Of a stretch of 64,000 nt of DNA, positions 7,155-26,972 are shown one piece after another; the first letter of the stretch is position 1, and the number at the start of each line of letters is the position of its first letter. The DNA comes from an uncultured Candidatus Saccharibacteria bacterium (lineage in GTDB: Bacteria; Patescibacteriota; Saccharimonadia; Saccharimonadales; CAYVSP01): positions 75,691-139,690 of the forward strand of contig CAZOZI010000001.1 of NCBI GenBank assembly GCA_964584265.1. The letters run 5' to 3'. A program made the translations under genes and the position numbers. The notes under the pieces were generated by a model, which worked only from the letters and a program-made list of their open reading frames with translations, did not search any database and had not been told where the DNA came from.

Positions 7155-7603
7155 TGAAAACGTATAGCGCAAAACCGACTGATGTTACCCGTAAATGGTA
7201 TGTATTTGATGCTAGTGAAGCGCCGCTTGGGCGCTTGGCGACTAATGTAGCTCAATTATTGATCGGCAAAGGGAAGCCACAATTTACTCACCACATCGAT
7301 TGTGGTGACTACGTAGTAATCACAAACGCCCAAAAGCTGGTAGTTACCGGAAATAAAGTGGCTGATAAGAAGTATTACAAACACAGCGGCTACCCTGGTG
7401 GTCTGAGCGAGCGCACACTAGGTGAACAAATGGAGCGTGATCCAACTAAGGTCATTGAGCATGCAATAAGGGGTATGTTGCCAGTAAACAAGCTCCGTCC
7501 AGCCAGGTTGGCCCGTCTCAAGGTCTACAGTGGTAGTGAGCATGAACATACTGCCCAAAAACCAATGGTCATCAGTCTTAAAAAGGCAAATCATGAAATA
7601 TAA
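7154..7603 (+). CDS. rplM: 50S ribosomal protein L13
   Basis: 149 aa. KWYVFDASEAPLGRLAT ... YYKHSGYPGG motifs. TAATG overlap with rplQ. Confidence 0.95.
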   Translation: MKTYSAKPTDVTRKWYVFDASEAPLGRLATNVAQLLIGKGKPQFTHHIDCGDYVVITNAQKLVVTGNKVADKKYYKHSGYPGGLSERTLGEQMERDPTKVIEHAIRGMLPVNKLRPARLARLKVYSGSEHEHTAQKPMVISLKKANHEI

Positions 7604-7606
7604 AAG

Positions 7607-7681
7607 GGAAAAGAGAGCCAGAGTCTTGGATTCATTCCAAACCCAGCGCGTTGAGAAAAACAGTAGGTTTGTCTCAAAAGC
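7607..7681 (+). promoter_or_regulatory. Structured 5' leader motif, copy A (rplM-rpsI spacer)
   Basis: 75-nt block, 64/75 identical and gap-free to 15851-15925. Hairpin 1 is 7626-7640 (UUGGA/UCCAA). Hairpin 2 is 7651-7677 (UUGAGA/UCUCAA). Each stem carries one compensatory change relative to copy B. GGAGG SD and the rpsI ATG follow within 15 nt. Confidence 0.5.
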
Positions 7682-7696
7682 CGGAGGCGCTACGTA

Positions 7697-8095
7697 ATGG
7701 CTAAACAGGATTATTTCTATGCATTGGGGCGACGTAAAAGTGCCACCGCCCGTGTAAGGCTGCAAGGTGGCAAGGGTGAGATTACAATCAATGGCAAACC
7801 GGCTAACGAGTATTTGAGCACCAGCAAGTACCTCCTTAGAGAGCTTGAACAACCCTTTAATGTCGTCGAGCAAAATGGTAAGTACAATGTAAGTGCCGTT
7901 GTTTCTGGCGGCGGCCACAATGGGCAAGTTGAAGCAATCCGTTTAGGTATTGCCAAGGCATTGGCGCTTATGAATGAGGATCTTAAAGGAACGCTCAAAC
8001 GAGCCGATCTGCTTGGCCGGGACCCACGCGAAAAAGAACGCAAGAAGTTCGGTCTCCGTGGAGCACGCAAGCAACGACAGTTTACAAAGAGGTAG
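7697..8095 (+). CDS. rpsI: 30S ribosomal protein S9
   Basis: 132 aa. GRRKSATARVRL ... GGGHNGQVEAIRLGIAKAL ... RKQRQFTKR are typical of S9. Confidence 0.95.
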   Translation: MAKQDYFYALGRRKSATARVRLQGGKGEITINGKPANEYLSTSKYLLRELEQPFNVVEQNGKYNVSAVVSGGGHNGQVEAIRLGIAKALALMNEDLKGTLKRADLLGRDPREKERKKFGLRGARKQRQFTKR

Positions 8096-8098
8096 AGT

Positions 8099-8518
8099 AT
8101 GCAAAGAACTGAAGCGGGTGTAAGTTTCGTTGGATTAACTGACCGAGTACTCCAATTCTTTGATGAATCTCCGGATAATGCAAGTAGTGTAGTTGCTAGA
8201 GGTTACTCTGAAGGTACTGCATACATGTTGGTTGCGGGAGAGCTAGTTAGTGGTTTATGCGTACTCACGGATCTAACACAGAGGGCCGAATTCTTTGCTG
8301 CGTGGCATAGGATACTGCGCAGTGATTGCTCAATAGAATACCAAACTATCCAAGCAGAAAACCCCCAAATGAGTCGCGAAGACCTAAATGCAACACCTAA
8401 GATGATACGCTTGAACGCAATACGACAAGCAGTTGGAGGGTCAGTACAAGCGAACTACAGAAAAGCGCGTGCCGAAAAACTGTTTCCGCAAGTCTTTTCG
8501 AGTATTGCAAGGCGTTGA
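8099..8518 (+). CDS. Hypothetical protein (139 aa)
   Basis: The ORF starts 3 nt after the rpsI stop. I recognise no motif. It sits upstream of a terminator. Confidence 0.5.
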   Translation: MQRTEAGVSFVGLTDRVLQFFDESPDNASSVVARGYSEGTAYMLVAGELVSGLCVLTDLTQRAEFFAAWHRILRSDCSIEYQTIQAENPQMSREDLNATPKMIRLNAIRQAVGGSVQANYRKARAEKLFPQVFSSIARR

Positions 8519-10159: not shown

Positions 10160-11161
10160 ATGAGGTTAGACCAATACGTTCTGGACAAGAATCCAAGCTT
10201 GAGCCGTTCCTACGTTTCAAGGCTCATAATTGATGGGCAAGTCTTAGTAAATGGTCAACCAAACAAGCCTGGTTACCGTATCCGAGAACACGACAAAGTA
10301 AAATTGCAGTTCGATCTTGCCAGTTTACAAGAAATAGCCGACATTGACTTGCCAATTCTATATGAAGATAAAAACATATTAGTAGTTAATAAACCGGTTG
10401 GAGTTATAAGTCACAGTCGGAGTAAATATTGGAACGAGCCTTCGGTTTCGTCATTTCTCAGACAGCACATCTATGGTAACCCAAACGTTGTGCGTTTGGA
10501 TGAGTTGCAAGGCGAAGCCGAGCAGCGGACTGAGTCGTATCGGGAATACGATGAAGGAGCAGCTAAGGCTTCAACGCGGCAAATCGCCAAAAGTGCCAAC
10601 AGAGTGGCTAGCTCTACTAGACAGCAGGCTGGCACGGCGCACATGTTTGGAGAGCGAGCAGGCATAGTACATCGTTTAGACCGCGCTACTAGCGGTGTCA
10701 TGATTTGTGCTAAAAATATTGAGACACTCAAGTGGCTACAGAAGCAGTTTAGCAGCCGAAAGGTGATTAAAACTTATATAGCCGTCGTTGGCGGCACACT
10801 AAAAGAGCAAGAAGCAGTGATTGATATGCCAATTGAGCGCAATCCTAAGGCGCCGGCAACTTTCAGGGCCAATGTTAGTGGTAAACAAGCCCAAACTAAA
10901 TATAGAGTGTTGCAAGCAAACAGCAAGCATAGCCTGTTAGAACTGCAGCCACTGACTGGTCGAACCCATCAACTCAGAGTTCATCTGGAGAAGATTGGGC
11001 ACCCTATTGTTGGCGACAATTTATATGGTGGTGAAGAAGCCAATCGGCTGTTTCTCCACGCGTTGAGCCTTAAAGTAAGTCTTCCTGATGGTGTTTCTAA
11101 TACGTTTGAGGCACCATTGCCCAAAGAATTTGAAATGTTTATGGAAAAGTCGCATGGATGA
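10160..11161 (+). CDS. rluD: RluA/RluD-family pseudouridine synthase with S4 domain and an internal ~60-aa insertion
   Basis: ATG at 10160 (MRLDQYV); the track start at 10109 overlaps trpS. S4 domain SRSYVSRLIIDGQVLVNG. Catalytic HRLDRATSG and C-terminal GRTHQLRVH motifs. Confidence 0.85.
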   Translation: MRLDQYVLDKNPSLSRSYVSRLIIDGQVLVNGQPNKPGYRIREHDKVKLQFDLASLQEIADIDLPILYEDKNILVVNKPVGVISHSRSKYWNEPSVSSFLRQHIYGNPNVVRLDELQGEAEQRTESYREYDEGAAKASTRQIAKSANRVASSTRQQAGTAHMFGERAGIVHRLDRATSGVMICAKNIETLKWLQKQFSSRKVIKTYIAVVGGTLKEQEAVIDMPIERNPKAPATFRANVSGKQAQTKYRVLQANSKHSLLELQPLTGRTHQLRVHLEKIGHPIVGDNLYGGEEANRLFLHALSLKVSLPDGVSNTFEAPLPKEFEMFMEKSHG

Positions 11162-15674: not shown

Positions 15675-15727
15675 CACCTATCGCCCTGCACAAGAAGACG
15701 GTAATCTGCTAAAATCCGAGTGCCTAT

Positions 15728-15803
15728 GCCGACGTAGCTCAGTGGACAGAGCGGCTGTTTTGTAAACAGCGGGTCGTGGGTTCGACTCCCTCCGTCGGCT
15801 CCA
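15728..15803 (+). tRNA. tRNA-Thr (UGU)
   Basis: GCCGACGUAGCUCAGUGGACAGAGC, anticodon stem-loop GCUGU-UUUGUAA-ACAGC, T-loop UUCGACU, acceptor CGUCGGC-U-CCA. One U-U mismatch in the T stem. Confidence 0.85.
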
Positions 15804-15850
15804 GAATTGATTAATCAGTTTATATCTGTTAAACTCCTTTGGTTAAGAAA

Positions 15851-15925
15851 GGAAAAGAGAGCCGGAGCGTCGGATTCATTCCGAGCACCGCGCGATGAGA
15901 AAAACCGTAGGTTTGTCTCATAAGC
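15851..15925 (+). promoter_or_regulatory. Structured 5' leader motif, copy B (upstream of rpmG)
   Basis: Gap-free 75-nt match (64/75) to 7607-7681. Hairpin 1 is 15870-15884 (UCGGA/UCCGA). Hairpin 2 is 15895-15921 (AUGAGA/UCUCAU). The rpmG ATG lies 13 nt downstream. Confidence 0.5.
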
Positions 15926-15938
15926 GAAGCGTAATATT

Positions 15939-16142
15939 ATGGCTAAAAAAAGCGACAAACGCAGAATTGTGGGACTGGTGAGCGAAGAAGGTGGCCACCG
16001 GCATTATTACACTATGAAAAACACCGTTAATACTCCCGATAAGCTAAGATTGCGTAAATACGATCCACTTACCAGAAAACACATATGGTATTCCGAAACC
16101 AAGAAGAACCTTGGTCGCAACGAAGTGAAACCCAAAAAATAG
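15939..16142 (+). CDS. rpmG: 50S ribosomal protein L33
   Basis: 67 aa. MAKKSDKRRIVGLVSEEGGHRHYYTMKNTVNTPDKLRLRKYDPLTRKHIWYSE fits the L33 pattern, in the form lacking the Cys zinc-ribbon residues. Confidence 0.9.
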   Translation: MAKKSDKRRIVGLVSEEGGHRHYYTMKNTVNTPDKLRLRKYDPLTRKHIWYSETKKNLGRNEVKPKK

Positions 16143-26771: not shown

Positions 26772-26794
26772 CTTAACAGAGATAGTCATATAAT
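26768..26794 (+). promoter_or_regulatory. Putative promoter for rplJ-rplL
   Basis: TTGACT (26768-26773) and TATAAT (26789-26794), both near-consensus, but the spacer is only 15 nt. Confidence 0.35.
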
Positions 26795-26800
26795 ATCTAT

Positions 26801-26972
26801 CTGTTACCAAAGACAGTGACGGCCGAGAGGTTTGATAATGTCACCGAGGTGCATACAATTCATTTTGTTTTGTGAGCACAACTGAAGCTTCTGGTAACAG
26901 GAGCTTTTTGGTTACAAGACAGTAATTTTGGTCGAGAATTCCTGTCTCAACTCATAAAAGGAGAAGTCAAAC
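26801..26972 (+). promoter_or_regulatory. rplJ (L10) 5' leader with internal terminator-like hairpin
   Basis: About 170 nt untranslated leader. Hairpin GUGAC...GUCAC (26816-26844 region). AGCUUCU-GGUAAC-AGGAGCU followed by UUUU (26886-26909) looks like an attenuator. AAAGGAG SD lies before the ATG at 26973. Confidence 0.5.

Follow-up and report, generated by a model that had tools for sequence, protein, structure and literature searches.

The stop codon of rplM and the start codon of rpsI overlap (TAATG) in relatives of the Saccharibacteria genome studied here, yet a 93-nt spacer separates the two genes in the 64,000-nt stretch of DNA that we analyzed (hereafter the window), and a 75-nt segment of that spacer recurs upstream of rpmG. 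What is this segment, and why does it precede two unlinked ribosomal protein (r-protein) genes? An earlier note on this DNA, made from the sequence alone, had proposed a structured cis-regulatory leader or RNA-processing element that serves both genes. The structured motif proves to be real, conserved and covarying in relatives, and it usually lies just upstream of gene starts. That it is a leader for rpsI and rpmG does not hold up, since it occurs at the rplM–rpsI junction in none of 79 Saccharimonadales relatives, and the same element precedes many other protein genes and, most often, tRNA genes. The account that we prefer, with moderate confidence, is that of a mobile, co-transcribed and phenotypically silent structured insertion rather than the regulator of a specific r-protein.

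Two copies of a structured motif in the window

Copy A (7607–7681) and copy B (15851–15925) align without gaps and are identical at 64 of 75 positions, as the earlier note had it, and both compensatory changes that it singled out are borne out: from copy A to copy B, the pair 7627/7639 changes from U-A to C-G and the pair 7651/7677 from U-A to A-U. We find a third such change at 7624/7641 (U-A to C-G), and at a fourth pair, 7620/7645, an A.A in copy A stands against a G-C in copy B. The observation is thus confirmed and is slightly stronger than first reported, since eight of the 11 differences sit in four base-pair positions and three of these four are compensatory. The 5′ block and the loop of the second hairpin (P2), which had been called invariant, indeed show no difference between the copies. 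A blastn search of the 64-kb window with one copy returns the other as its sole match (E = 1.5e-17), the P2 pattern occurs twice against 0.00 expected, and a covariance model run on the window with filters off recovers both copies at the scores given in Table 1, with everything else below 15 bits.

The gene calls that frame the copies are correct (L13, 7154–7603; S9, 7697–8095; L33, 15939–16142), with L17 (6609–7154) directly before L13; an ORF at 8099–8518 directly follows rpsI. Copy A ends 15 nt and copy B 13 nt before the downstream start codon, the distances originally given. Copy B lies 46 nt downstream of tRNA-Thr, and a promoter-like site at 15687–15715 that precedes this tRNA is, on sequence grounds, probably the start of a single transcript that would also carry copy B and rpmG. 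A promoter inside the element is unlikely, since the sole match (15913–15940) would initiate transcription downstream of the rpmG ATG.

Table 1 Features of the two copies and their surroundings in window coordinates
Feature	Position	Strand	Basis
Relic of the original rplM/rpsI junction; AAAAGGCAAATCATG in the window corresponds to AAGGAAGGCAAATAATG in relatives	7581–7603	+	Comparison with 16 empty sites
Copy A bridging mini-ORF, 34 codons, from the relic ATG to the TAA of the rpsI TAATG; encodes MKYKREKRARVLDSFQTQRVEKNSRFVSKAGGAT	7593–7697	+	Same layout in all 12 intercistronic copies
Copy A core, AAGGGAAAAGAGAGCC - P1 - GCG - P2 - AAAGC	7604–7681	+	Covariance-model match 7602–7683, 92.7 bits; alignment to copy B
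Copy A purine-rich 5′ single strand	7604–7616	+	Nearly invariant in 112 members among the matches listed
Copy A hairpin P1, sequence variable, pairing kept	7617–7649	+	All 12 family P1 pairs change on both sides
Copy A hairpin P2, UUGAGAAAAAC-AGUAG-GUUUGUCUCAA, internal A.G	7651–7677	+	P2 pattern; A/B pairs; family pairs 110–148 onward
Functional second junction: GCC-GGA-GGC mini-hairpin with Shine–Dalgarno GGAGG, then TAATG and the rpsI start	7680–7699	+	Sequence
tRNA-Thr(UGU) upstream of copy B	15728–15803	+	Rfam scan
Copy B core, in the tRNA-Thr/rpmG spacer	15848–15925	+	Covariance-model match 15846–15927, 98 bits
Copy B hairpin P1	15861–15893	+	A/B pair list
Copy B hairpin P2	15895–15921	+	P2 pattern; A/B pair list
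Copy B GCGAAGC mini-hairpin, optional P3	15924–15930	+	Recurs after P2 in 16 of 112 copies among the matches listed

The earlier note could assign the motif to no named leader class, and a scan of Rfam 15 at the gathering score likewise gives nothing at either copy. At E ≤ 10, the region of copy A has no match and that of copy B has four chance-level matches, none of them an r-protein leader; the E ≤ 10 scans also return no known self-cleaving ribozyme family (hammerhead, twister, pistol, hatchet, HDV-like and others). A full-text literature search for the sequence and related topics found no description of the element. Elsewhere in the window there is a genuine r-protein leader, an Rfam L10_leader at 26789–26919 (+) that scores 47.2 bits (gathering score 44).

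A family of structured elements in Saccharimonadia

By its S9 protein, the window belongs to Candidatus Saccharimonadales. The relatives are represented by 80 rpsI loci, each taken with up to 10 kb of flanking sequence from the genome of a species representative, giving 81 sources with the window; loci are labeled by three-digit L numbers (e.g. L067). A covariance-model search of these sources gives 15 matches in the 81 rpsI loci, and 13 of the 81 sources carry a copy. A single strict P2 pattern (GCGNNGAGAAAAACNGNAGGTTTGT) retrieves at least 120 stretches with at least 125 copies from a metagenome set and has no match in viral contigs, and the covariance model adds others from these stretches, with as many as four in one rRNA operon among the matches listed. 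At least 150 copies were thereby recovered in Saccharimonadia, and we lean toward regarding copies A and B as two members of a large, undescribed family of structured insertion elements of about 75 nt in this class.

The core measures 74 to 77 nt and consists of a purine-rich 5′ strand (AAGGGAAAAGAG(C)AGCC), hairpin P1, a GCG linker and P2. Among the matches listed, the 5′ strand, the linker and P2 are nearly invariant across the family; the conservation of P2 is overstated, since copies were selected on an exact P2 pattern, a selection that did not extend to the 5′ strand. P1 keeps its pairing while its sequence and even its architecture are essentially free, and it takes the form of a single hairpin, two hairpins or, in a short form of 56 nt, a GCGAAGC mini-hairpin. 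The P1 of copy B has its nearest relative among the matches listed in a tRNA-Trp leader copy of L086 (93%). A GCGAAGC mini-hairpin is added after P2 in 16 of 112 copies among the matches listed, and the GCC-GGA-GGC mini-hairpin of copy A can be compared with this type of P3.

The covariation seen between copies A and B extends through the family. In 126 aligned copies among the matches listed, 97.2% of pair cells are Watson–Crick or G.U and 21 of the 23 pairs vary on both sides, and none of 500 shuffles reaches the observed values; sliding the partners by 1 to 3 columns as a control leaves pairing at only 33 to 54%. G.U pairs number 40 versus eight A.C mismatches, one ambiguous pair being left out, and the fold therefore belongs to the sense strand as written. 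The edges of conservation are sharp, with an abrupt rise at position −3 and an end right after GUCUCAU. Some tRNA leaders show an additional helix, P0, in which an upstream UUUUCCC pairs with the 5′ block; this helix is not claimed here since nothing is conserved upstream of position −3.

Read in reverse, the 5′ strand (GGGAAAAGAG, 7607–7616 in the window) is almost identical to the 5′ arm of P2 (GAGAAAAAC, 7653–7661). The two covary in divergent copies, with GGGGUGAG and GAGAGGGG in L067 and GGGAAGAG and GAGAAAC in L030/L005, and a triplex, an alternative pairing or the ancestral duplication of a half-element are possible sources of this mirror likeness.

The copies are insertions

In all of the relatives, L13 ends in ...AAGGAAGnnAAATAATGGC and its stop codon overlaps the S9 start. 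The window holds this junction twice, as a decayed copy (7581–7595) and a functional one (7682–7699) with the element between them (Table 1). In the relic, within 7590–7603, TAA is mutated to TCA (TCATG instead of TAATG), so that L13 now stops at 7601–7603, 8 nt later, with about three extra residues relative to relatives. The L067 copy was inserted cleanly and adds about 100 nt that relatives 89 to 90% identical in L13 and S9 lack. Among the matches listed, 12 of 109 copies have an exact direct repeat of 13 nt or more on either side, compared with one of 322 mismatched control pairs; these repeats are 13 to 38 nt long, and between them and the core lies unconserved filler, 11 to 22 nt on the 5′ side and 4 to 17 nt on the 3′ side. 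The empty sites in relatives and the 13- to 38-nt flanking duplications together identify the copies as insertions. The earlier note had set its reading against that of a dispersed repeat; by its target duplications and its absence from close relatives the element is such a repeat, although its copies prefer the 5′ flanks of genes.

Most of the filler cannot be traced to decay of the target duplications: compared in register, its 5′ side is about 34% identical, and L129 is the one case with a clear extension. The repeat-to-repeat distance is 116 nt in four independent cases (L110, L007, L125 and L165) and 113 (L171), 95 (L174), 152 (L105), 119 (L087), 134 (L129) and 110 nt (L144) in the others. 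All ten distances equal 2 modulo 3, including those in tRNA contexts, where a reading frame should not matter. Tandem duplication of the element together with its flank is seen in L087 (1120–1320, period 119 nt) and L099 (557–786, about 174 nt). Terminal inverted repeats are absent, in that AAGGGAAAAGAG at the 5′ end has no inverted counterpart in GUUUGUCUCAU at the 3′ end, and neither a mobilizing enzyme nor defined ends were found in the loci examined.

One of 162 tRNA genes carries the element in the unbiased rpsI loci and the window, from which we conclude that it is dispensable; 5S and 23S flanks are occupied only sometimes, even in genomes that carry it. Among the matches listed, P1 sequences from the same locus are no closer to each other than those on different contigs, and P1 types recur across contigs, which gives no evidence for recent bursts within genomes. 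One site can hold different P1 types, and in orthologous pairs the core is sometimes more and sometimes less conserved than its flanks; in the pair L194/L200, three core changes are all structurally neutral.

Copies favor the 5′ flanks of stable RNA and translation genes

The 125 pattern-selected copies considered here, all among the matches listed, were selected blind to context. Forty-one of them lie 2 to 10 nt before a tRNA gene of the same orientation, with many different tRNAs represented, six lie just before 5S rRNA, and one lies 4 nt before tmRNA. About 28 more are sense copies just before the ribosome-binding site of protein genes, mostly those of the translation apparatus. The protein genes, whose products were mostly named by eye from N-terminal sequences, encode S10, L4, L2, S17, L5, S14, L11, L7/L12, S18 and EF-Ts and also SSB, GroEL, DnaB, SecA and others. 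Several copies among the matches listed lie 0 to 8 nt upstream of the 23S 5′ end, and others are found inside 23S (seven sense and one antisense among the matches listed); the remainder of the 125 is unclassified. One such 23S site is the terminal loop of a helix-25-type hairpin, at position 583/584 of the Rfam LSU model (L095, L153, L084 and L178), and at least two further 23S sites are occupied. Within the rpsI loci of the relatives, copies precede rplE (L003 and L012), rpsN (L007), rpsQ (L074 and L067) and tRNA-Tyr (L031).

Beside tRNA 5′ ends, 44 copies are in sense and three in antisense orientation among the matches listed. Strong σ70-like promoters lie 26 to 42 nt upstream of the core in tRNA-leader copies, with a promoter score of at least 9.5 in 12 of 27 such copies versus 5 of 104 control windows among the matches listed. 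This placement suggests that the element is part of the precursor transcript.

A divergent form of the element is found directly after the rpsI stop codon, on the opposite strand, in L004/L005, L030, L052, L062 and L067, and its carriers are not mutually closest relatives. The same site in the rpsI 3′ flank is occupied in antisense in L090 as well (in L067, at about 10397–10507), and the rpsI terminator hairpin usually follows. Eight loci (L003, L007, L008, L011, L020, L042, L067 and L072) have a TTGACA/TATAAT promoter in the 250 nt downstream of rpsI (e.g. 10480–10600 in L067), followed by a conserved leader (ATGTCA..., TTGGTTTACCGxC, GGCGGT ... AACCGCC-loop-GGCGGTTTTTT) that resembles a terminator/antiterminator. 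L005 gives a weak Trp_leader match of 26.5 bits (cut-off, 41 bits), and this leader is absent from the window. In L100 (about 140–330) and L094, the tRNA that follows the element seems to be interrupted, with a 5′ half and extra sequence before the ARAGORN call; these may be group I introns of the kind reported for Patescibacteria tRNA genes (PMC13011429).

Mini-ORFs bridge the copies between coupled genes

Copies located between translationally coupled genes share a further property. In 12 of 12 such copies among the matches listed (copy A of the window, L003, L012, L007, L074, L067, L088, L110, two copies in L125, L190 and L144), an ORF of 33 to 43 codons opens at the ATG of the duplicated TAATG before the element and closes at the TAA of the TAATG that follows it; those of L012, L074 and L067 were translated by hand. 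No such ORF is present in the copies in 5′ UTRs and tRNA leaders. The frame in which P1 and P2 are read differs among copies (L012, L074 and L190), peptide identity ranges from 12 to 65%, and the bridging peptides have no match in Pfam, so that openness and phase are conserved rather than a protein; together with the leader copies that lack the ORF, these observations rule out a small-protein gene.

A mirror-image arrangement is seen for the two antisense insertions in the 5′ ends of genes, namely in msrA (L105) and in a cysteine-desulfurase-like gene (L129; named by eye), where a decoy ORF leads from a duplicated ATG through the reverse complement of the element and stops at the TGA within the ATGA of the true start. 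Read most simply, the survivors are only those insertions that keep the hand-over of ribosomes to an essential downstream gene, and the mini-ORF, judged from its layout, should keep translational coupling intact.

A probable silent mobile element and its alternatives

In the explanation that we prefer, the element would have inserted independently and repeatedly into transcribed DNA, usually in sense. Its preferred sites would be found a few bases before the mature 5′ end of a tRNA, tmRNA, 5S or 23S, in surface loops of 23S, and just before the ribosome-binding sites of r-protein and other highly expressed genes. It would be co-transcribed and would fold in the precursor RNA. In the precursors of stable RNAs it could be tolerated as part of the leader that maturation removes, and in tight operons the insertion would have duplicated the Shine–Dalgarno–stop/start junction. 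The short ORF from the duplicated ATG to the second TAATG (7593–7697 in copy A) would then hand ribosomes to the downstream gene; copy B, in the tRNA-Thr/rpmG spacer, would need no bridging ORF. The conserved fold is presumably what the spreading mechanism recognizes.

A possible but doubtful alternative, which would take in the RNA-processing element suggested in the earlier note, is that the element is a cis-acting RNA module of use to the host, with a role in processing, insulation, stabilization or antitermination, which was recruited repeatedly before highly expressed genes. It could, for instance, give purchase to an endonuclease that defines 5′ ends or shield a 5′ or 3′ end by its structure, and it would spread by rare illegitimate recombination followed by positive selection. 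Such a module would account for the placement 0 to 10 nt from the mature 5′ ends of tRNA, tmRNA, 5S and 23S, for the strong sense bias and for the enrichment before translation-apparatus genes. The invariant single strands, sharp edges and imprecise filler are moreover what is expected in the absence of a dedicated transposition machinery, the three core changes between L194 and L200 are all neutral to structure, and the antisense copies after rpsI, which terminators follow, could serve as 3′ structures. However, the element is sporadic and dispensable (1 of 162 tRNAs, 13 of 81 loci and patchy 5S and 23S flanks in carriers), ribosomes reading through the operon copies would melt the fold, some insertions within gene 5′ ends are antisense, and a single site can hold differing P1 types around a core that is sometimes less conserved than its flanks. 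Sporadic occupancy, read-through ORFs and antisense insertions favor a silent mobile element over a host-useful module, whereas such a module retains support from the invariant single strands and from the close placement next to mature 5′ ends; the two are compatible with each other.

An agent that acts at the level of RNA would explain the sense bias, the 0- to 10-nt abutment and why abundant RNAs are preferred, as well as the raggedness of the 5′ filler and the length and variability of the target duplications. This could be a small catalytic or nuclease-guiding RNA that would set or mark the 5′ ends of stable RNAs and r-protein mRNAs in Saccharibacteria, or a transcript that joins the 5′ ends of abundant RNAs and is then copied back into DNA; we rate such an agent as unlikely.

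Many copies are translated inside operons or lie inside 23S, where a free RNA is not expected, most genomes have few or zero copies near rpsI, and no target or partner is known. These points make it very unlikely that the element is a trans-acting small RNA that RNase P or rRNA maturation would free as a discrete species of about 100 nt, with a level that would track stable-RNA synthesis, although the conserved single-stranded nucleotides and the promoters 26 to 42 nt upstream would suit one, as would the end of the element 2 to 10 nt before a tRNA or tmRNA, where RNase P would define the 3′ end of the small RNA.

Less probable still is a sub-variant of the mobile element that operates on DNA, in which an HUH enzyme, REP/RAYT-like or IS200/IS605-like, would recognize hairpins of single-stranded DNA and the fold of the RNA would be incidental. 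GCGAAGC is said, after work by Hirao et al., to be an exceptionally stable DNA mini-hairpin, which would fit recognition as DNA, and REPINs too keep covarying hairpins. The excess of G.U (G.T) over A.C, five to one on the transcribed sense strand, speaks against this reading, as do the 13- to 38-nt flanking repeats, since HUH elements come without target duplications; copies on both strands within 10 kb in L067 argue against a replication-strand rule of the IS200/IS605 kind.

That S9, L13 or L33 would bind the fold and repress rpsI and rpmG as an autoregulatory leader is highly improbable: the structure is conserved and both window copies end 13 to 15 nt before an r-protein start codon, but the element is not at the rplM–rpsI junction in 79 relatives, the genes that it precedes include more than 15 for different proteins and more than 15 for different tRNAs besides those for rRNAs and tmRNA, it matches no Rfam leader, and target duplications mark it as an insertion.

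This analysis names and models an abundant and unannotated part of Saccharibacteria genomes, and it carries a warning for annotation, in that long leaders or spacers before tRNA, rRNA and r-protein genes in Saccharibacteria may be insertions of this kind and not regulators. The bridging and decoy mini-ORFs would be a clear natural case of a tightly coupled operon that survives insertion through a preserved ribosome hand-over. If activity at the RNA level or RNA-mediated spread were true, the element would represent a class of bacterial RNA element that is new, and it would do so in a lineage whose genomes are very small.

Relation to known elements

Small dispersed repeats whose transcripts form hairpins resemble the element in several respects. 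Correia elements of Neisseria, enterobacterial ERIC/IRU, pneumococcal BOX and the REP/BIME repeats are, like the element described here, about 50 to 150 nt long, multi-copy, intergenic, co-transcribed and sporadic among relatives, and they have a stable fold built of modular hairpins. Unlike them, the element has neither terminal inverted repeats nor a fixed short duplication, being flanked instead by 13- to 38-nt repeats with filler; it also prefers the sense orientation at the 5′ flanks of stable-RNA and translation genes and conserves single strands. With MITEs it shares a multi-copy, dispersed distribution and presence/absence polymorphism, but not terminal inverted repeats or a fixed short target duplication. 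No conserved 5′ GTAG cleavage motif of the REP type was seen by eye.

Rickettsia palindromic elements (RPEs) are likewise small palindromic insertions in a reduced genome that persist only where translation stays intact; in the family described here, an ORF is kept open across the element whichever way it points. An RPE becomes an in-frame part of the host protein, whereas here a separate bridging or decoy mini-ORF ends in a stop codon that overlaps the real start (TAATG or ATGA). The r-protein leaders (L10_leader, L13_leader and S10/L4) resemble the element as structured RNAs just before r-protein start codons; the element differs in belonging to no single operon or protein, in not being orthologous among relatives and in having no Rfam match. 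By analogy only, a short, structured, RNA-like unit in sense orientation, linked to tRNA and 5S genes and with variable duplications and 5′ ends, recalls the SINE retroposons of eukaryotes, from which it differs in that a reverse transcriptase partner, an A-tail and an internal promoter are not evident. We know of no bacterial precedent for SINE-type retroposons.

The intervening sequences (IVSs) of 23S rRNA are insertions in helix 25 or 45 that RNase III excises. Some family members are similarly short, ORF-less and sporadic and occupy the terminal loop of a helix-25-type hairpin (LSU 583/584), the classical IVS site. The element is nonetheless far commoner outside rRNA, in tRNA, 5S and tmRNA leaders and at operon junctions (both window copies are non-rRNA), and unlike an IVS it is not one long stem that extends a host helix. 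In a survey of rRNA insertions in CPR bacteria, 64 of 66 insertions in Saccharibacteria were at most 250 bp long, were not introns, lacked endonuclease genes and were uncharacterized, and some were proposed to be IVS-like (PMC11270868). At least some of these short insertions probably belong to the present family, whose distribution shows that the rRNA copies are a minority within a genome-wide element.
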